A stretch of DNA of 27,684 bases from a virus. Made by a program: the position numbers and the translations under genes. The notes below the pieces were generated by a model. The model was not told where the DNA came from, ran no database searches, and worked only from the letters and a program-made list of their open reading frames with translations. Location of the stretch: UHGV virus genome UHGV-0027489; one strand, given 5' to 3'. Shown here in pieces: positions 2,170-25,786 of this stretch; position 1 is the stretch's first letter, and every line of letters starts with the position of its first letter.

Positions 2170-3318
2170 ATGAGTTTTTTCTATGATTTTAGCGTATATC
2201 AGCTTATTGCATTCTTAATTTTTATTTTTTTTGTATTTCTTATTCCTGTGAAATCAGGGATAGTAAACAATTCACAAAACAATATTTTGTGGCTTGAAGG
2301 TCTTAGGGGTGTGGCATGTATTATGGTTTTTTTCAATCATTTTGCTTACTACTTACCTACGATAGGGATAACAAACCAAAACATTCCATATAAAATAATG
2401 CCGATATATGATAATTTTGGCTCATTAGGGGTGGAGATATTTTTCGCAATTACCGGGTTCCTTTTTTTATCAAGAATAAAAAATGTAAAAAGCGCGGATG
2501 ATTTTATGATGAAGAGAATAAAACGACTAGCACCTGCGTTTTTATTTTTTGCATTGATAAACATGGCAGTGTTTATAATATTTATGTCTGATGGAGCTAG
2601 TCTTGATGATTACAGAAAAGCACTTATTCAGCTATTAGCGTTTGGGTTTCTTGGCGGTGGAATTTTCTTCAAAGACTCATGGATACACAGTATTGGCGTG
2701 GTATCATGGACTCTGCCGTATGAATGGATTTTCTATATATCAATTGTAGCTATATCTCTTTTTTATAAAAATGAAAAATATATTTCCATAACACTGTTTA
2801 TTATTGGTATTTATACTATAGAAAAGTCTAATTTAAATACAGATATGTTTTTATTTTTCATTAGTGGTGCGGTTGGTAAAGTTGTTTACGATAATTCACT
2901 AAACCATGATAAAAAATCTTGGAAGTTGATTATATCAATTACAGCAATATTAACATTGCTCACCTGCATTTATCAAAAAGATGACGGATACGGGATTTAT
3001 AGATTTATTTTAGTAACAATATTATTCTCCAGCATTTGCTACATTAAGCCTAAGTTTCTTCAATCCAGCAACATAGTATTGATTGGTATGATTAGCTATA
3101 GCATATACCTTAGCCACCAAGCTATTATATATCTATCTTTATACGTATTTAAAATAATTGGGTTTAACCTATATGAAATAGGAATCCTTTCCTACTTCAT
3201 TATGTCAATAATTACATTTATGATTACTGTGATAATATCACTAATAACCTATAAAAACATTGAGTTGAGATTCAACTCAAAAGTTAATAGTTCGCTACAA
3301 GTCTCGCATACCAAGTAG
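2170..3318 (+). CDS. Integral-membrane acyltransferase (acyltransferase-3/OafA-like), probable O-antigen acetyltransferase for seroconversion
   Basis: 382 aa, about 10 predicted TM helices; N-terminal WLEGLRGVACIMVFFNHF region typical of acyltransferase family 3; visibly AT-rich relative to flanking phage DNA; opposite strand to the late operon; adjacent to the tailspike as in phiV10-like phages (from memory). Confidence 0.75.
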   Translation: MSFFYDFSVYQLIAFLIFIFFVFLIPVKSGIVNNSQNNILWLEGLRGVACIMVFFNHFAYYLPTIGITNQNIPYKIMPIYDNFGSLGVEIFFAITGFLFLSRIKNVKSADDFMMKRIKRLAPAFLFFALINMAVFIIFMSDGASLDDYRKALIQLLAFGFLGGGIFFKDSWIHSIGVVSWTLPYEWIFYISIVAISLFYKNEKYISITLFIIGIYTIEKSNLNTDMFLFFISGAVGKVVYDNSLNHDKKSWKLIISITAILTLLTCIYQKDDGYGIYRFILVTILFSSICYIKPKFLQSSNIVLIGMISYSIYLSHQAIIYLSLYVFKIIGFNLYEIGILSYFIMSIITFMITVIISLITYKNIELRFNSKVNSSLQVSHTK

Positions 3319-5446
3319 CCCCGCCATCAGCAGTTGACATCCGGAACACCTGAGTTCCGGATTCATTTAGTGATGGTGTATTTTTCGCAAGCGTAACAGA
3401 TCCTGTAAAGGTGATCAGTTTTGATGATGCGGAAAACACTGAAAGTGTACATTCAGTATATCCTATTGGCGGGTTACTGAGTGTCGCAACGGATATACTA
3501 ATGTTAGAGTTGCATGTTATTGAAATATAAGAAGACAATGAAAAATCAGCAACATAAGTGCTTCCTGCTGTTTCTGTTTTAATAACATACGAGATAATTG
3601 GAACACCAACTCCTTTTCTGAAAAAAGTCCTGTTAGCATGCATGTCGTCTTCTATGCCAACGAAATTTTTTGTCCCCACAGCATTTGTGAACTCTTGAGC
3701 CACCCCAGAAACATGATTTATACATTTACCAACCCATGCTGGGCTGTTTGAGTTTTCACATAAAGAAAATCCACAATTCGCACTACCTACAAGAAATGGA
3801 TATAACGCCGCAGTATAACTTGAGAGACCGGCAGAATTATAAGCATTCATGTTAACGAACGTTTGACACTGAGAGAATATATTCCCGGTAGCGCCACTAT
3901 CAACGAAGAAACCAATCCCACCATTAATATAACCATCAACAGGAGCTAAATTTGTTTTTGTGTAATCCCATTTTGATGGTGAATCTGCAAAACATTGATT
4001 AAATGAGTTGTTTATAGAATTTTGTACAACAAAGCAACATTTCATTCTTGAGTTTTGGTCGGCCACTGTATCGTCATACATTCCCCAGTTATGTACGTTA
4101 TTAAGCCTGTTATTTCCACCATTCCTAACCCACGTTCCGAATCTGAAATATCTGCCTTCACCCATACTAATATGGTGATCGCTTCCTTCTATGATGTGTG
4201 CCTGACTAAGTGGATTCGTAGGTTTTAATACGCTGATAGCATAGAATTTCATGAGGTGCACACCCATGCCTCCAGCAATATGAATGCCATGACCATCAAC
4301 GTTGGCTACGTAAATGCCATCTAACTTGTTGGCATAACCATCAGATATTTTAAATCCATTAACAGTCTTTGCGCGGGCGTCAATTAAAAGATTGCTAATG
4401 TGCCCAGCGTATTGATTACCTGTTCCTTTATCGCATTTAACAGCATACCCAGAAGAATCTGCTATGAAGTCATCCGTGAGATATACCCCTCCAAATTCTG
4501 CATCTATGCTTACATCACCGTAAACATGTAATGTTGTGTTTATGGGGTATTTCTTTCCATTTAATCTGACAACTTTGCATACAGTATTTGGTTGTATCCA
4601 GTCTGGATGCCCAGCTGCACTACTTGGAGAATGTTCCAGCCCTGTTAAAGATGCTGCATAATCAATCGCCTCCTGCAATGTTGAATACATATCAGGATTG
4701 ACGAATATAACATTTTTTAGCTCACTACCAACCGTACCACCGGCGTAATCAACTGACTTATCGAACCCTGATAATCCCGCTCCAGTAGGCTTTGCCAGCT
4801 CAATTAACACATCGGTGGCGCTACCTGATGGGGGTAGTGTTGCAAATGGCTGACCAGCGCTATCAAAAGCAACAATTTTGTTTGCCCTGGAAATCGCATC
4901 AGGAAGAGATTGAATAGCTTCCGGTGTTCTTAGTGTTTTGTTGAGGTTTGTATCTGCAACGCTATCAACATAATTTTTAGTTGCCGCATCCTGCGGGCGT
5001 GAAGGATCTCGCAGGTTTCTGATGTAGTTATTAAGAGCATCATAATAGTTAGCCACGAACGAAGGCTTTCTGAGGGCCAGACTTAACCAGCTGCGTACCT
5101 GCTGAATCAGCATAGTCAGTTTATCAAAAGCATCCTCATGCACTTCTGCGAAGAACTTACCCTGATTACGGAGATCGGTTTCCTGCGTCACCGGCAACTC
5201 ACGCGAAATGGAAATTTGGTATCCGTTTGCAAGTGCCGACATCAGTATTACATTGCCACCAGAATACCCACCAGCACCCGTAACTGTATAATCAGTATCA
5301 AGAATCAGCTCTGTGATGTTCCCGTTCAGGTCAGACACCTGAACAACCAGGTCTGATTTTCTGAAAATTCGAAAAGTATACGGAAACGATGTCGTAACGC
5401 CGTTACCTGTGTATTCGTTGTGGTCAACTTCGGTTGAGACCGTCAT
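3284..5446 (-). CDS. Tailspike / receptor-binding protein
   Basis: 720-aa ORF, last structural gene before the lysis cassette; G/N/S/T-rich repetitive middle and C-terminal region consistent with a beta-helix depolymerase-type tailspike; GGAG RBS 6 nt upstream of the ATG. Confidence 0.7.
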   Translation of the reverse strand: MTVSTEVDHNEYTGNGVTTSFPYTFRIFRKSDLVVQVSDLNGNITELILDTDYTVTGAGGYSGGNVILMSALANGYQISISRELPVTQETDLRNQGKFFAEVHEDAFDKLTMLIQQVRSWLSLALRKPSFVANYYDALNNYIRNLRDPSRPQDAATKNYVDSVADTNLNKTLRTPEAIQSLPDAISRANKIVAFDSAGQPFATLPPSGSATDVLIELAKPTGAGLSGFDKSVDYAGGTVGSELKNVIFVNPDMYSTLQEAIDYAASLTGLEHSPSSAAGHPDWIQPNTVCKVVRLNGKKYPINTTLHVYGDVSIDAEFGGVYLTDDFIADSSGYAVKCDKGTGNQYAGHISNLLIDARAKTVNGFKISDGYANKLDGIYVANVDGHGIHIAGGMGVHLMKFYAISVLKPTNPLSQAHIIEGSDHHISMGEGRYFRFGTWVRNGGNNRLNNVHNWGMYDDTVADQNSRMKCCFVVQNSINNSFNQCFADSPSKWDYTKTNLAPVDGYINGGIGFFVDSGATGNIFSQCQTFVNMNAYNSAGLSSYTAALYPFLVGSANCGFSLCENSNSPAWVGKCINHVSGVAQEFTNAVGTKNFVGIEDDMHANRTFFRKGVGVPIISYVIKTETAGSTYVADFSLSSYISITCNSNISISVATLSNPPIGYTECTLSVFSASSKLITFTGSVTLAKNTPSLNESGTQVFRMSTADGGATWYARLVANY

Positions 5447-5498
5447 GTTAAATCTCCAGATAGTCGCAGCACCCGTTGCGCCGCATATCTGGTTATTC

Positions 5499-5521
5499 TA
5501 TTACCTGCAAAACCACATATG
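5499..5521. promoter_or_regulatory. Conserved 23-bp element TATTACC-N5-AACCACATATG (copy A)
   Basis: Matches 22458-22480 at 18 of 23 positions (only the 5-nt spacer differs); sits in the intergenic region between the tailspike start and the LexA-box gene. Confidence 0.45.
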
Positions 5522-5549
5522 GATAGAAAGGCTGTAAATACGAATAGAT

Positions 5550-5566
5550 ATTACCTTTCAGGTAAT
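5550..5566. promoter_or_regulatory. Operator-like palindrome ATTACCT-TTC-AGGTAAT (copy A)
   Basis: Perfect 7-bp inverted repeat with a 3-bp spacer; a 16-bp identical copy lies at 22521-22536; both sit upstream of plus-strand moron units and ~90-105 bp upstream of minus-strand gene starts. Confidence 0.5.
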
Positions 5567-5602
5567 TTGCAAAACGTGCTGGATAGCAAACAAATTATTT
5601 GC

Positions 5603-5622
5603 TACTGTATAAATATACAGTT
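5603..5622 (+). promoter_or_regulatory. LexA (SOS) box
   Basis: TACTGTATAAATATACAGTT matches the E. coli LexA consensus TACTGTATATATATACAGTA at 18 of 20 positions (CTGT-N8-ACAG with AT-rich spacer); lies 20 bp upstream of ATG 5642 and overlaps a TATAAAT -10-like hexamer. Confidence 0.65.
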
Positions 5623-5641
5623 ATTGCATGGAGAAGATAAG

Positions 5642-5899
5642 ATGCAGCAGTATCACTATCCACTGGAAGACGGATTTACCGAAAGGATTCACACGCCGGG
5701 AGGCGTCAGGTCACTGGTGGATGGATCGCACTTGATGAAATTACTCCGGGATCTCGATAAAGATGGATTTAATGTCGATGGCCCACTTGCCGAACTGACT
5801 GCACTGATTAACTACGTCACCAGCTCACAGATGTCTATGCAGGATCTGCAAACACATCTAGACTATTGTGCCGAACAATTACGAAAACAAACCACATAA
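5642..5899 (+). CDS. Small SOS-regulated protein of unknown function (85 aa); candidate antirepressor or other SOS-induced moron product
   Basis: ATG 5642 preceded by GGAGAAG RBS at 6-nt spacing; the track's upstream start at 5519 would place the operator elements and LexA box inside the ORF, so I prefer 5642; opposite strand to the structural operon; no family recognised. Confidence 0.5.
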   Translation: MQQYHYPLEDGFTERIHTPGGVRSLVDGSHLMKLLRDLDKDGFNVDGPLAELTALINYVTSSQMSMQDLQTHLDYCAEQLRKQTT

Positions 5900-5921
5900 A
5901 GAAAAGGCCGCGAAAGCGGCC
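5897..5921 (-). terminator. Rho-independent terminator for minus-strand transcripts
   Basis: On the minus strand: GGCCGC-TTTC-GCGGCC stem-loop followed by TTTTCTTTAT; directly downstream of the stop of the 98-aa membrane gene (5931) and overlapping the 3' end of the plus-strand gene. Confidence 0.6.
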
Positions 5922-5922
5922 T

Positions 5923-5934
5923 GTGACATGTCAC
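5923..5934. repeat. Perfect 12-bp palindrome GTGACATGTCAC (copy 1 of 3)
   Basis: Exact 12-mer also at 23510-23521 and 25775-25786; lies between convergent gene ends next to the terminator hairpin. Confidence 0.6.
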
Positions 5935-6227
5935 GTCCCTTTTCTGAATGATAGCCATTCGAAAAATGATGACATTCCACCGCAGACAATAGCAAAGATG
6001 ATCCCACCAAAGAAGAGAAGGCCAGCCTGCCACCACTCCCACCGCCATACATCCACAGCGCCAACCATACCAACAATCGCTCCAACAAATGGAATATAGC
6101 TCACGATGAAAGCAATGGGGGCTGCAATTATCCAGTGCAATCCCCACCATGATTCAAGCCCAGCCATAATTGCTGCCAACTGAAAAAGACCAACGACGAT
6201 ATAAACAATGAATCCTATAGCTTGCAT
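5931..6227 (-). CDS. Small polytopic membrane protein (98 aa), unknown function
   Basis: Very hydrophobic, Trp-rich sequence with 3-4 predicted TM helices; AGGTGA RBS before ATG 6227; last gene before the terminator. Confidence 0.5.
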   Translation of the reverse strand: MQAIGFIVYIVVGLFQLAAIMAGLESWWGLHWIIAAPIAFIVSYIPFVGAIVGMVGAVDVWRWEWWQAGLLFFGGIIFAIVCGGMSSFFEWLSFRKGT

Positions 6228-6239
6228 GTAGTCACCTAT

Positions 6240-6413
6240 TTACCCAGTAAAAATAAGAGGCCTCCCCTCAATAAGGCTTGCAACAAGAACTACTCCCTGC
6301 ACAACAAAGATGAACCAGCAAATAGCTTGAGTCTGAGGGTTAAGAAAATATTTGTAGCGGTCAATAAATAACAACCCAACAGAAATTATCACACTCAAAA
6401 TAATTAAAAACAC
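6240..6413 (-). CDS. Small membrane protein (57 aa, GTG start), unknown function
   Basis: Hand-translated ORF below the track's 60-aa cutoff: GGAAG RBS then GTG immediately after the stop of the 824-aa gene; two predicted TM segments. Tentative. Confidence 0.3.
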   Translation of the reverse strand: MFLIILSVIISVGLLFIDRYKYFLNPQTQAICWFIFVVQGVVLVASLIEGRPLIFTG

Positions 6414-6422
6414 AACACTTCC

Positions 6423-8897
6423 TTATTGCGGAGTGACATCCTGAGGTCGCCACCAGTATGTCTGGTTAAACTCTTTCTTCGAACGTTGCTCCATTTTACG
6501 CAAATAGCCTGGTGAAAAATACTCCTGCATCTGGTTAAAAATCATGTGATCGAGAGCCGCCTTCAAGTACCAGAGATTTGCACCTGGCATCAGCCCCTTC
6601 CCAAGCTTAACCAGATCACCACCAGTCTGCTCACTCTTCCCTTCCACAGCATTTAACGGTATGCCCTGAGCAATCTTCACTACGTCATCAACCAGACCAG
6701 CTACCGGGCCAAGCATCGACGCCAGCGCGCCGCTTCCGTACCTAGTGTGATCTGACAATAAAAAGTCACCGTAAAGGCCAAGACCACCACCTTTCAGTAG
6801 AGCACCAAGCCAAAATTTAGCAGCATCTTCTCCTGTCATCTCGCGAGGATTACGACCAGACGCAAGGTCGTTAAGTTGCTGCGACAAAGCGCCAAGAATG
6901 GTCGTACTGGCAATAAACGTCGCAATATATGCCGCACGCCCACCAGCAGACGGCATACCCATAGCGCGTGACCAGTGACGCATAACCACCGAGATAGGGA
7001 ACGATTTAAACAGGAAAACACTTCTCGTTAATTCACCTTTCCATGTTCCACGCTGAATACCAGAACCGGTTATCAGTTGCTCACGTGCTCCCGGTGTAAT
7101 AACAGCCATATCAACTTCTTCAGTTACGGCACCGAGCAGTTTGCGCGTTGCCTCAAATTTCACGCGTTCAGGCTCACCAAGATGTTTAACTGCTGAATCA
7201 GGGATACGCATAATGCTTTCCGGTGTCAGCATCGTATTATTGCCGTTCCCCCAGTCCTCCTGTTGCGCCAGCTTCCATACGCTCCAGTCTGTGTCAGTAA
7301 TCCCTTTGCTTTTCAGGATACGAAAATCAGAATCATCGAGGCTACGAAGGTCTGGTGTCCGTGACACTACTTCTCCCAGGCTTCCCATCATGGTTACGCC
7401 ATAGGCGCGCTTGTGCGCATCTGACCATGCTGTAAGCCCACTGGCACGCATTACCGCCGTTGCAGCCCAACGAGACACAGACGGCCCCATATTATCCATC
7501 GCCCAGCGGTTAACGCTGCCAAGTAGAGATTCCATCGCCAGACCAGCGCGGCGCGCCCGCGCAAGTTCTGTACGGTTCGTTGGGTCCATAGCTTCAAGCT
7601 GGTTGCGGAATAACTGGTTCATTGGAAGGTTGGTAACCTTCGCAGACAGATACATGGTTCCAAGGTCAGAGAACGATGACAGCAACGCGGATCCGAGTCT
7701 GCTGGCAACCAACCAGTTGCGGATATTGTCAGACCATCGCGCGATGTGCGGATTCGCTACAGGCTGTGTCTTTCCGGAAATAAAGTTGTACAGATTCTCT
7801 GTGTTGTTCGCCAGCCGCTCGACTTTACCGGTTTTACTCGGGTTAGCTGTTGCCGTTTCTGCCTTCACCTGATCAAGAAGAGAGCGGAAAACATGATCGG
7901 GGTTTGGGCCATATGTTTCCACCAGTGCAATATCTTTACTGATACCTTCAAGGTGACCGACCATGATTTCCCATAGAGAGCGATCGCCATAAAGTTGCTG
8001 ATATTGCAGATAGGAATCTGCATCTTTGAAATGTATCTGTCGTGATGCATTACCACGGTTAGCACGTGCGCCGGAAATTCGCATTCCGGTATCAGTAAGC
8101 TTATTCAGCCCACCTGTAGCGATCGTGTTATAAGCCTCTCCAAGAAATGCAGACAACTCGGCATCGTTCATCAGTTGTCCATCGGCTCGGATATAATATT
8201 TGCGATCCAGCTTACCTATAACATCGCTAACCCACTTATCCTTTGATACCGCCCCAACCTTTTCCATAGAATGATGTTGAGGGATCCCCCAGTTTTCGAG
8301 ATAGCCAATGTCCCCACCAGCATCATTAAACCGGCGGCGCAGTAGATCTGTCACTTCTCTCCACGCCTTAGCACCTTTTCTTGCTTTAGCATTGCCAGTA
8401 TTTTGCCCTCGCATTTCATATACCAGGTCACGTACGCCAGCTTCATCTTCAAACAGGCCAAAAAAGCGAGGATCAACTGCTTCAAATGCCTCCTGCAATT
8501 GACTCAATGCATAATCACGAGTGGCTTTTGTTCTGGACTCAACAGAGAGGAAATTCGATTTACCGTCTGCATTAAAAGCAATAGTACGGTTAAGAGCGCC
8601 AAGTTTCCCATCAGCCCCTTGATAGCTATTGATAAATTTATCCAATCTCTGACGTGCGGCTATAGTGAGGGCCACACGACGTTTCTTTAATGCCGCTTCT
8701 CGCTGTAATTCTTCAGATGCCAATTGTGCTGCTCGATATAGCCGCTCTGATTCGGAAAGTTGTCTCCACGACATCGGGTCATCACGAGCAATGGAGCGCA
8801 TATTTCGATAAATGCGGTCTTCAATGTTCTGTATTTCTCGCTCCGTTAACGTGCGCTGCGCCGCCTGCTGGACCGCTTGTATACATTCCTGTCTCAT
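6423..8897 (-). CDS. Large virion protein (824 aa), putative internal/ejection or tail protein
   Basis: Long minus-strand ORF in the tail module, consistent codon usage; one of three consecutive 600-837-aa genes before the tailspike, as in podovirus ejection-protein sets; no specific domain recognised. Confidence 0.5.
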   Translation of the reverse strand: MRQECIQAVQQAAQRTLTEREIQNIEDRIYRNMRSIARDDPMSWRQLSESERLYRAAQLASEELQREAALKKRRVALTIAARQRLDKFINSYQGADGKLGALNRTIAFNADGKSNFLSVESRTKATRDYALSQLQEAFEAVDPRFFGLFEDEAGVRDLVYEMRGQNTGNAKARKGAKAWREVTDLLRRRFNDAGGDIGYLENWGIPQHHSMEKVGAVSKDKWVSDVIGKLDRKYYIRADGQLMNDAELSAFLGEAYNTIATGGLNKLTDTGMRISGARANRGNASRQIHFKDADSYLQYQQLYGDRSLWEIMVGHLEGISKDIALVETYGPNPDHVFRSLLDQVKAETATANPSKTGKVERLANNTENLYNFISGKTQPVANPHIARWSDNIRNWLVASRLGSALLSSFSDLGTMYLSAKVTNLPMNQLFRNQLEAMDPTNRTELARARRAGLAMESLLGSVNRWAMDNMGPSVSRWAATAVMRASGLTAWSDAHKRAYGVTMMGSLGEVVSRTPDLRSLDDSDFRILKSKGITDTDWSVWKLAQQEDWGNGNNTMLTPESIMRIPDSAVKHLGEPERVKFEATRKLLGAVTEEVDMAVITPGAREQLITGSGIQRGTWKGELTRSVFLFKSFPISVVMRHWSRAMGMPSAGGRAAYIATFIASTTILGALSQQLNDLASGRNPREMTGEDAAKFWLGALLKGGGLGLYGDFLLSDHTRYGSGALASMLGPVAGLVDDVVKIAQGIPLNAVEGKSEQTGGDLVKLGKGLMPGANLWYLKAALDHMIFNQMQEYFSPGYLRKMEQRSKKEFNQTYWWRPQDVTPQ

Positions 8898-20241: not shown

Positions 20242-20534
20242 TCCTGTTCACTGGCCTCTTTGGCCATCTTCAAATACTGTTCAGGGCAATGCGCCATAAC
20301 GCGCTGAAACAGTTCCAGCGCCAGATTGCGTTGCCCCTCATTAAATGCCATTGCCATAGCGTCCATCGGTGAGATAGCGGAAAACACACGGCCTTTCTCC
20401 AGCACCGACCAGACAACGCGACGCCCCTGTTCACTGCTCATGACAAAGCGAATGTCATCAATTTCACGCTGTGCCATGTCACGTTGCTTACGGGCGTTTT
20501 CTTCTTTCAGTTGATCATCTTCGTAATCTGTCAT
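20238..20534 (-). CDS. Small head-assembly-region protein (98 aa), unknown function
   Basis: ORF between portal and scaffold, overlapping both by 4 nt (translational coupling). Confidence 0.4.
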   Translation of the reverse strand: MTDYEDDQLKEENARKQRDMAQREIDDIRFVMSSEQGRRVVWSVLEKGRVFSAISPMDAMAMAFNEGQRNLALELFQRVMAHCPEQYLKMAKEASEQE

Positions 20535-22431: not shown

Positions 22432-22457
22432 ATCAATGACTCCGTACGCAATTAAAT

Positions 22458-22480
22458 TATTACCAATTTAACCACATATG
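22458..22480. promoter_or_regulatory. Conserved 23-bp element TATTACC-N5-AACCACATATG (copy B)
   Basis: 18 of 23 identity to 5499-5521; intergenic, between the 68-aa gene start and the tRNA-region promoter. Confidence 0.45.
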
Positions 22481-22499: not shown

Positions 22500-22537
22500 T
22501 TGACATTTAACGCACAAATTATTACCTTTCAGGTAAG
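22500..22537 (+). promoter_or_regulatory. Putative promoter (TTGACA -35) overlapping operator-like palindrome ATTACCTTTCAGGTAA (copy B)
   Basis: Consensus -35 hexamer TTGACA at 22500-22505; the 16-bp palindrome at 22521-22536 is identical to 5550-5565 and overlaps where a -10 would lie. Confidence 0.45.
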
Positions 22538-22858: not shown

Positions 22859-22935
22859 GTGGCATTAGCTCAGTTGGACAGAGCAACCGCCTTCTAAGCG
22901 GTTGGTCGCAGGTTCGAATCCTGCATGCCACGCCA
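22859..22935 (+). tRNA. tRNA-Arg (anticodon UCU)
   Basis: 77 nt by hand folding: acceptor stem GTGGCAT/ATGCCAC, D-arm GCTC-AGTTGGACA-GAGC, anticodon stem ACCGC/GCGGT with loop CTTCTAA (anticodon TCT), T-arm GCAGG-TTCGAAT-CCTGC, discriminator G, encoded CCA. Resembles but is not identical to E. coli argU as I recall it. Confidence 0.85.
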
Positions 22936-23021: not shown

Positions 23022-23098
23022 CAGCAGGACGCCATTGCGATGACTTCATGCTGTAAACCCGTACAGCCACGGAAGGCATAACTCATTGCTTCCAGTTC

Positions 23099-23509: not shown

Positions 23510-23521
23510 GTGACATGTCAC
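23510..23521. repeat. Perfect 12-bp palindrome GTGACATGTCAC (copy 2 of 3)
   Basis: Starts 5 nt after the stop of the 123-aa gene, directly before a terminator hairpin; flanks cGTGACATGTCACa identical to copy 3. Confidence 0.6.
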
Positions 23522-25664: not shown

Positions 25665-25774
25665 AACCACCGTGGTAATAGTTACCGTTGTGGTAATAGT
25701 ACCATGCAAAATAAAGCCGCCATAGTTGGCGGCAGTATTCAAAACCCATCAAATTCATCATGCATAATCTACTC

Positions 25775-25786
25775 GTGACATGTCAC
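25775..25786. repeat. Perfect 12-bp palindrome GTGACATGTCAC (copy 3 of 3)
   Basis: At the early/late junction: overlaps the stop codon of the Cys-rich gene and lies 30-110 bp upstream of the small-terminase start. Confidence 0.6.

Follow-up and report, generated by a model that had tools for sequence, protein, structure and literature searches.

The 27,684-nt window (the whole stretch of viral DNA analysed here, UHGV-0027489) carries a small plus-strand gene of 85 aa that is very probably ant. Its product would be the antirepressor that operates the lytic switch in an E. coli prophage of the epsilon15-like type (Uetakevirus), being made under LexA control and acting on the phage repressor Rep. 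The system as such is already known, including a crystal structure, and what is described here is the E. coli copy of the epsilon15-like phage switch. An SOS-triggered antirepressor was among the options offered by an earlier sequence-only reading of this DNA, and it is the option borne out by an 87% identity to the Ant protein of phage SPC32H, by the genomic slot of the gene, by its LexA box and by the existence of a cognate Rep homologue.

The ant gene occupies positions 5642-5899 of the plus strand including its stop codon (5897-5899), with the ATG at 5642 and not at 5643. A GGAG ribosome-binding site, read directly from the sequence at 5630-5633 (plus strand), lies 8 nt 5' of the ATG and is invariant across a nine-phage alignment of the ant-tailspike intergenic region; the 85-aa ORF and ribosome-binding site that had been proposed for this strand are retained. 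In tblastn searches, SPC32H Ant (AGR48758.1) aligned with the ORF over its full length at 87% identity and 35 phage records contained a match to the ant protein. The orthologue is labelled "ant: anti-repressor protein" in the SPC32H and SPC32N records, and E. coli orthologues are annotated as "hypothetical protein". Searching the PDB sequences returned a single match, chain E of 5d50, an "Anti-repressor protein" of 86 aa (phmmer E=3.3e-47, residues 2-85 versus 3-86), the remaining chains of PDB 5D50 being the SPC32H repressor. The protein further falls into PHROG 450 (E=3.7e-47), a family without functional label, and aligns less strongly with PHROG 1760, the "anti-repressor" family, at that family's C-terminal end (E=5.8e-7). 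The earlier statement that it matches no family is thus superseded by PHROG 450 and by chain E of 5D50. A Pfam search found no model above cut-off for the 85-aa protein and no P22-Ant, Bro-N or KilA-C match; DUF724 appeared below threshold (17 bits against a cut-off of 38 bits) and was discarded as noise.

Conservation of the ORF in related phages, on which the first interpretation depended, is extensive. Every complete Uetakevirus genome examined carries ant at a fixed position, and in SPC32H, epsilon15, phiV10, BUCT554 and BUCT711 ant lies opposite in strand to its flanking genes, the tailspike gene on one side and the internal virion protein genes on the other. In SPC32H, ant is found between tsp and the gene of an 824-aa protein, in the same orientation as in the window. 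With a dN/dS of 0.06-0.07 relative to the orthologues of SPC32H, epsilon15 and BUCT554, for which synonymous sites are near saturation, ant is by its pattern of substitution a real gene under strong purifying selection, and on every sequence-level count the 85-aa ORF is a member of the SPC32H-type Ant family.

The DNA of the island surrounding ant is 95-99% identical to that of Escherichia phages phiV10, TL-2011b, PAS61 and others, and the window is, as judged from these comparisons, that of an epsilon15-like podovirus (genus Uetakevirus) and not of a P22-like phage. When compared to the guaA-adjacent prophage of E. coli 2017.15.01CC (NZ_AP021890.1), it displays 99.9% identity over the first 6.5 kb and 100% across the last 2.7 kb. 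The tailspike gene (3284-5446, minus strand), which was recognised by matches to PHROG 1640 and other tail families and by synteny with SPC32H tsp, is divergent from ant. A 98-aa membrane protein gene (5931-6227, minus strand; PHROG 3075, E=1.6e-54) is convergent with it, and is followed by a 57-aa ORF (6240-6413, minus strand) and by an 824-aa virion protein gene (6423-8897, minus strand). The ORF map thereby confirms the location that had been given for the 85-aa ORF, between the tailspike and internal virion protein genes. No RNA family catalogued in Rfam was detected in the island, P22 sar-like antisense RNAs included, and a tRNA was the sole match within the window.

The sequence separating ant from the tailspike gene was aligned for nine phages from E. 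coli, Salmonella, Enterobacter and Klebsiella. Conserved islands emerge amid diverged DNA and correspond to the SOS box, to CTGGATA, to TG-N-TACTGT and to GGAG, as well as to an inverted repeat ATTACC-N5-GGTAAT and to a block near the tailspike start. CTGGATA, located 17 nt 5' of the SOS box, and TG-N-TAC-TGT are invariant or nearly so while their flanks diverge. A putative ant promoter can be placed at 5580-5608 (plus strand), with a -35 hexamer TGGATA at 5580-5585, a 17-nt spacer and an extended -10 element TGcTACTGT at 5600-5608, in which the -10 hexamer would coincide with the left arm of the LexA box. As a simple sigma-70 consensus scan upstream of ant called no promoter, both hexamers being weak by plain consensus, this assignment rests on conservation and on the precedent of the phage 186 promoter p95, for which the GenBank annotation gives a -10 TACTGT whose six bases open the LexA site. 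LexA bound to the ant box would be expected to cover approximately -12 to +8.

The LexA box itself was evaluated by mismatches to the consensus, by dinucleotide-preserving shuffles and by conservation. Located at 5603-5622, TACTGTATAAATATACAGTT has two mismatches (18/20) to the 20-nt E. coli SOS-box consensus TACTGTATATATATACAGTA and is separated from the ATG by 19 nt. With up to three mismatches allowed, no other match occurs in the 27.7-kb window, and none of 100 dinucleotide shuffles produced one. The near-consensus SOS box that had been noticed upstream of the ORF is thus real by these measures. The bare 16-nt core CTGT-N8-ACAG is not significant, with two occurrences in the window versus 0.46 expected; the spacer of the second one, at 23051, is rich in G+C (CTGTAAACCCGTACAG), and this copy was judged to occur by chance.

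The LexA box is kept in 9/9 Uetakevirus phages of the intergenic alignment, and the SPC32H box aligns with that of the window. A wider survey took in phage records, 80 IMG/VR contigs and 8 bacterial genomes drawn from different genera, with hosts including E. coli, Salmonella, Citrobacter, Enterobacter, Erwinia, Klebsiella and others, and yielded a total of 95 loci having enough upstream sequence. CTGT-N8-ACAG was kept, 17-20 nt from the ATG and in 13 sequence variants, at 88 of these 95 loci, for which the independent evidence comes mainly from ca. 17 diverse loci since close E. coli relatives make up almost all of the 80 IMG/VR loci. Six other loci, in Klebsiella, Kluyvera and Superficieibacter, have ATGT-N8-ACAG, and the left arm of the box was lost at a single one (1/95). 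Across the 88 loci the arms of the box are fixed and the 8-nt spacer is variable, a pattern that would be expected of a protein-binding site.

Comparison of SPC32H with SPC32N is informative in this regard, the two differing by two bases only across 852 nt around ant. One of these turns ACAG into AAAG in the right arm of the box and the other falls in the tailspike gene; in the window, the base corresponding to the SPC32N box mutation is C5618, which is intact. In their 2013 study, Kim and Ryu reportedly found these two to be the sole differences between the SPC32H and SPC32N genomes, and the SPC32N box mutation is said there to result in constitutive Ant and a lytic phenotype.

A candidate target for Ant was found in the NZ_AP021890.1 prophage, which encodes a 194-aa helix-turn-helix protein (WP_000836290.1). 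Its gene is located ca. 5 kb past the right end of the window, the immunity region beginning ca. 3 kb past it. WP_000836290.1 matches the SPC32H Rep over its full length (5d50_A, E=4e-42) and its C-terminal domain (5d4z, E=4e-20), and a domain search detected HTH domains (HTH_3) only, with no Peptidase_S24 self-cleavage domain. Because this protein is 43% identical to SPC32H Rep whereas the two Ant proteins are 87% identical, conservation of the Ant-Rep interface is only assumed here.

In the epsilon15 record (AY150271.2), a "protein_bind repressor" annotation designates TTACC-N5-GGTAA. These operators flank the repressor gene and are also found 5' of terS, of the portal operon and of the tailspike gene. 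Three putative Rep operators occur in the window at places equivalent to those of epsilon15, while at least two matches were obtained in 0/100 shuffles. The first, ATTACCTTTCAGGTAAT (TTACC-N5-GGTAA, 5550-5566), lies 14 nt 5' of the ant -35; the second (22521-22537) lies 5' of the portal operon and corresponds to the epsilon15 site 2931-2947; and the third, TTACCGTTGTGGTAA (25681-25697), lies 5' of the small terminase gene and corresponds to the epsilon15 site 12-27. In diverse loci listed individually, the distance from the operator to the ant ATG is fixed at 88-91 nt. Since it fills the 17-nt spacer that follows a minus-strand TTGCAA, the operator at 5550-5566 most likely serves the divergent tailspike unit.

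A late-promoter-like block, CATATGTGGTTTTGCAGGTAATAGAAT, is present on the minus strand at 5496-5525, 5' of the tailspike gene, and is conserved in all nine aligned phages. The same block, CATATGTGGTT-N5-GGTAATA (CATATGTGGTTAAATTGGTAATAATTT), occurs at 22480 on the minus strand, 5' of the portal operon, and each of the two is located ca. 45 nt downstream of a Rep operator. At the other end of ant, a hairpin GGCCGC-GAAA-GCGGCC (5905-5922, minus strand) with a 7-bp stem, six GC pairs and a tail TTTCTTTATG begins 6 nt past the ant stop (fold z of ca. -3.5 on either strand). It is considered a canonical minus-strand intrinsic terminator since TTTCTTT follows on that strand, and epsilon15 is annotated with a rho-independent terminator at the equivalent place. 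The convergent minus-strand terminator that had been described at the 3' end of the gene is therefore present; it closes the upstream late unit, of which the 98-aa gene is the final member, and the ant mRNA can form this hairpin too. Given this end at 5905-5922 and the layout of operator and block, the tailspike gene seems to form a separate transcription unit under Rep control. Accordingly, the picture of a gene embedded antisense in the late operon holds for the strand, which is opposite, but not for the embedding: ant would occupy the gap between two late units, running toward one and away from the other, and would lie inside neither.

A palindrome, GTGACATGTCAC (5923-5934), abuts the terminator and overlaps the stop codon of the 98-aa gene. 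Three exact copies exist in the window (5923, 23510 and 25775), always adjoining a hairpin at an operon end, and four or more matches with up to one mismatch were obtained in 0/100 shuffles. Three copies each are also found in epsilon15 and in Klebsiella phage BUCT711, the motif being a recurrent feature of operon ends across these phages.

Taken in sequence, the proposed switch would operate as follows. In the lysogen, host LexA would sit on the SOS box, overlapping the -10 and the start site of ant, and keep the gene silent. Upon DNA damage, active RecA would trigger LexA self-cleavage and ant would be transcribed. Ant would then bind Rep, a protein with two HTH and no self-cleavage domain, and break the DNA-binding Rep tetramer; with Rep gone from the TTACC-N5-GGTAA operators of the early promoters and of the three late-gene units, lytic growth would follow. 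We infer by orthology that the SPC32H mechanism holds in the E. coli prophage. For SPC32H, the passages of PMC7380047 that deal with this phage describe Ant as produced upon SOS induction and LexA self-cleavage and as inhibiting the repressor by protein-protein contact. Those of PMC9638917 that treat the complex have Rep binding DNA as a tetramer and a tetrameric Ant taking two Rep dimers, which breaks the tetramer, and the part of PMC9986798 concerned with the interface places the Ant contact site in the Rep tetramerisation domain.

LexA may not be alone in controlling ant, given the Rep operator located 14 nt 5' of the -35. This operator, together with the presence of GTGACATGTCAC at the 3' end of ant, raises the rather unlikely possibility of a second control layer, which might be a LexA and Rep double lock with positive feedback once Ant removes Rep, or a coupling to convergent late transcription via a GTGACATGTCAC-binding factor.

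The same operator, along with the replacement of CTGT by ATGT as left arm in the Klebsiella, Kluyvera and Superficieibacter subgroup and the loss of that arm at one locus, might also be taken to mean that the gene does encode an antirepressor but that its box is a relic, with Rep, acting through the neighbouring operator, or else late transcription converging on ant as its main control. We regard this as very unlikely: the retention of the arms while the spacer drifts in 88/95 loci is the signature of a bound site, SPC32H and SPC32N differ at just two bases of the 852-nt segment, of which the C-to-A change in the right arm is one, and the operator is positioned as the 17-nt spacer that follows TTGCAA in a minus-strand promoter pointing toward the tailspike gene.

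The identity of the product has also been questioned, the sequence-only reading having listed a toxin or an anti-defence factor besides an antirepressor. Such an SOS-induced toxin, anti-defence factor or accessory ("moron") product, standing outside the lysis-lysogeny switch, would suit a small protein that has no Pfam family and whose PHROG 450 is labelled "unknown function", the more so as relatives have an insertion hot spot immediately 3' of ant, where genes for Bro-N proteins are found and, in a number of E. coli genomes, one for a YafO toxin. These options gained no support and are highly improbable in view of the 87% identity to a protein that was crystallised in complex with a phage repressor, of the presence of a cognate non-cleavable Rep in the matching prophage, and of the fixed position of ant in every complete Uetakevirus genome examined, when an accessory gene would be patchy. 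Finally, that the true product is instead a 126-aa ORF starting at ATG 5519 is scarcely credible, for although 5519-5899 is one open frame and database clusters of 126-127 aa exist (e.g. P0002, P0015, P0026), the extension crosses the Rep operator, the promoter and the LexA box, has no ribosome-binding site and consists of DNA that evolves like non-coding DNA with isolated conserved blocks, the crystallised protein has 86 aa, and the extension is most simply an artefact since protein conservation starts at the Met of the 85/86-aa form.

The gene listed in E. coli genomes and in phages including phiV10 and TL-2011b as a "hypothetical protein" or as an over-long 126-aa ORF can with good confidence be given the name of LexA-controlled antirepressor. 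Prophages integrated at guaA would then be predicted to be induced by DNA damage via Ant and not via repressor cleavage, and a single base change in the box could render them constitutively lytic. This may be of relevance for reporter phages based on phiV10 or SPC32H, and for prophage induction by DNA-damaging antibiotics.

Several known systems can be set beside the ant locus. In P22, the immI region places an antirepressor gene beside the tailspike gene of a temperate podovirus, and the P22 Ant is much larger than the 85-aa Ant. The comparison with immI that had been drawn at the outset is valid for position and for position only: no mnt or arc was found by ant in the ORF map of the window, where ant adjoins nothing but structural genes and membrane ORFs, the protein has no P22-Ant-type domain, and the phage is a Uetakevirus. 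Control also differs, P22 ant being under the phage repressors Mnt and Arc and not under LexA (PMC7380047). Sequence homology links Ant to the Bro-N "anti-repressor" proteins of ca. 231 aa (PHROG 1760): in AEW24558.1 of TL-2011b, the last 74 residues match the entire Ant (41% identity, E=3e-15). Proteins of PHROG 1760 have an N-terminal Bro-N domain that is absent from the 85-aa Ant; their genes often occur just downstream of ant in relatives, and the window lacks one.

Small antirepressors under direct LexA control have been described in GfoA and GftA of the Gifsy phages and in AntC of N15 (Lemire et al. 2011, PMC3121763). As proposed for ant, they are encoded far from the immunity region and act on non-cleavable repressors (PMC3121763). 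The Gifsy genes differ by their genome context, a dinI-antirepressor-irsA operon in lambdoid siphoviruses, whereas no dinI-like gene adjoins ant in the ORF map of the window.

Tum of phage 186, a protein of 146 aa with a DinI-like half (PMC3121763), offers a parallel in logic: a small antirepressor is kept off by LexA and, once made, inactivates a repressor that cannot be cleaved. A homology between the two is loosely stated in a review (PMC7380047); BLASTP of the ant protein against Tum gave no alignment at E<=100. Phage 186 differs in being a P2-like myovirus. Its p95 promoter resembles the proposed ant promoter in having a -10 TACTGT that is the left arm of the LexA box, and the epsilon15 box, TACTGTATGTTTATACAGTA, is identical to that of phage 186, letter for letter.

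The closest counterpart is the SPC32H-type antirepressor, which Kim and Ryu are said to have termed structurally distinct in 2013. SPC32H was found in Salmonella whereas the host here is E. coli, the two Rep proteins are only 43% identical, and the spacer of the box reads ATAAATAT in the window versus ATGTTTAT in SPC32H, with two versus three mismatches to the consensus. Otherwise, the two loci agree in genus, in an Ant protein that is 87% identical and of equal length, in genome slot and orientation, in the distance from the LexA box to the ATG, in a Rep operator located 91 nt upstream, and in the occurrence of a Rep homologue in the prophage.

The Ant protein of this prophage shares 87% identity with that of SPC32H while the repressors of the two phages are only 43% identical, as determined by comparing the Rep homologue at L011, one of the compared loci (5870-6454), with SPC32H Rep (PDB 5d50_A). 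Conservation is far higher in the antirepressor than in its target repressor, and the two phages have identical operator half-sites, TTACC and GGTAA. In many database entries, a 126/127-aa version of ant is called from an upstream in-frame ATG (window 5519-5899, + strand; protein clusters P0002, P0015, P0018 and P0026-P0032). From that start, the frame would extend across operator, promoter and LexA box; the call was rejected as a recurrent start-site mis-annotation.

Relatives have an insertion hot spot in the slot immediately 3' of ant (L002 33420-34115, L004 1773-2477 and L009 1771-2355 among the compared loci, and also E. coli genomes). It is occupied in relatives by Bro-N genes annotated as "anti-repressor/anti-immunity", with the Bro-N protein found at this place in TL-2011b having a C-terminal domain homologous to Ant, and in some E. 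coli prophages by a toxin of the YafO family. The window carries neither a Bro-N gene nor a YafO-family toxin.

A perfect 12-bp palindrome, GTGACATGTCAC, occurs in three copies per genome in the window (5923-5934, 23510-23521 and 25775-25786, with a further copy having one mismatch at 20471-20482), in epsilon15 (L010; 2142, 19517 and 39612) and in BUCT711 (L102; 431, 18526 and 26462). All copies of the window and of epsilon15 adjoin a terminator hairpin where a transcription unit ends, and the positions occupied are 3' of terL, 5' of terS and the ant boundary, the palindrome often overlapping a TGA stop. At least four matches with no more than one mismatch were obtained in none of 100 shuffles. 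The palindrome is unchanged letter for letter from E. coli to Klebsiella phages, and the epsilon15 record has no annotation for it.

The upstream regions of the tailspike gene and of the portal operon have in common a block, CATATGTGGTT-N5-GGTAATA, found on the minus strand of the window at 5496-5525 and at about 22455-22480, with a Rep operator ca. 45 nt upstream of it. The same block is also carried by epsilon15, TL-2011b and BUCT711. It resembles a late-promoter element that has a poor -35 and that may depend on an activator.

Two other genes of the window were noted. The first is a phage-borne tRNA-Arg with a TCT anticodon, reading AGA (22859-22935, + strand); it is flanked by the terminase unit and the portal unit, and the late genes are on the other strand. 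The second is a 382-aa ORF (2170-3318, + strand) that adjoins the tailspike gene and for which the matching E. coli genome gives the annotation "acyltransferase family protein"; like oac of SPC32H, this gene probably brings about serotype conversion by modifying the O-antigen.

Finally, the SOS box has ATGT in place of CTGT as its left arm in a Klebsiella/Superficieibacter/Kluyvera subgroup (TATATGTATATATATACAGTA; L006, L007, L008, L015, L018 and L019), which suggests either a weaker LexA control or a LexA of slightly different specificity. No similarity was found between the antirepressor proteins of epsilon15 and phage 186. In phage 186, p95, the LexA-controlled promoter of the antirepressor Tum, has a LexA site (L100 5045-5064) that is identical to the epsilon15 ant box (L003), TACTGTATGTTTATACAGTA, with a TG-N preceding the box in both.
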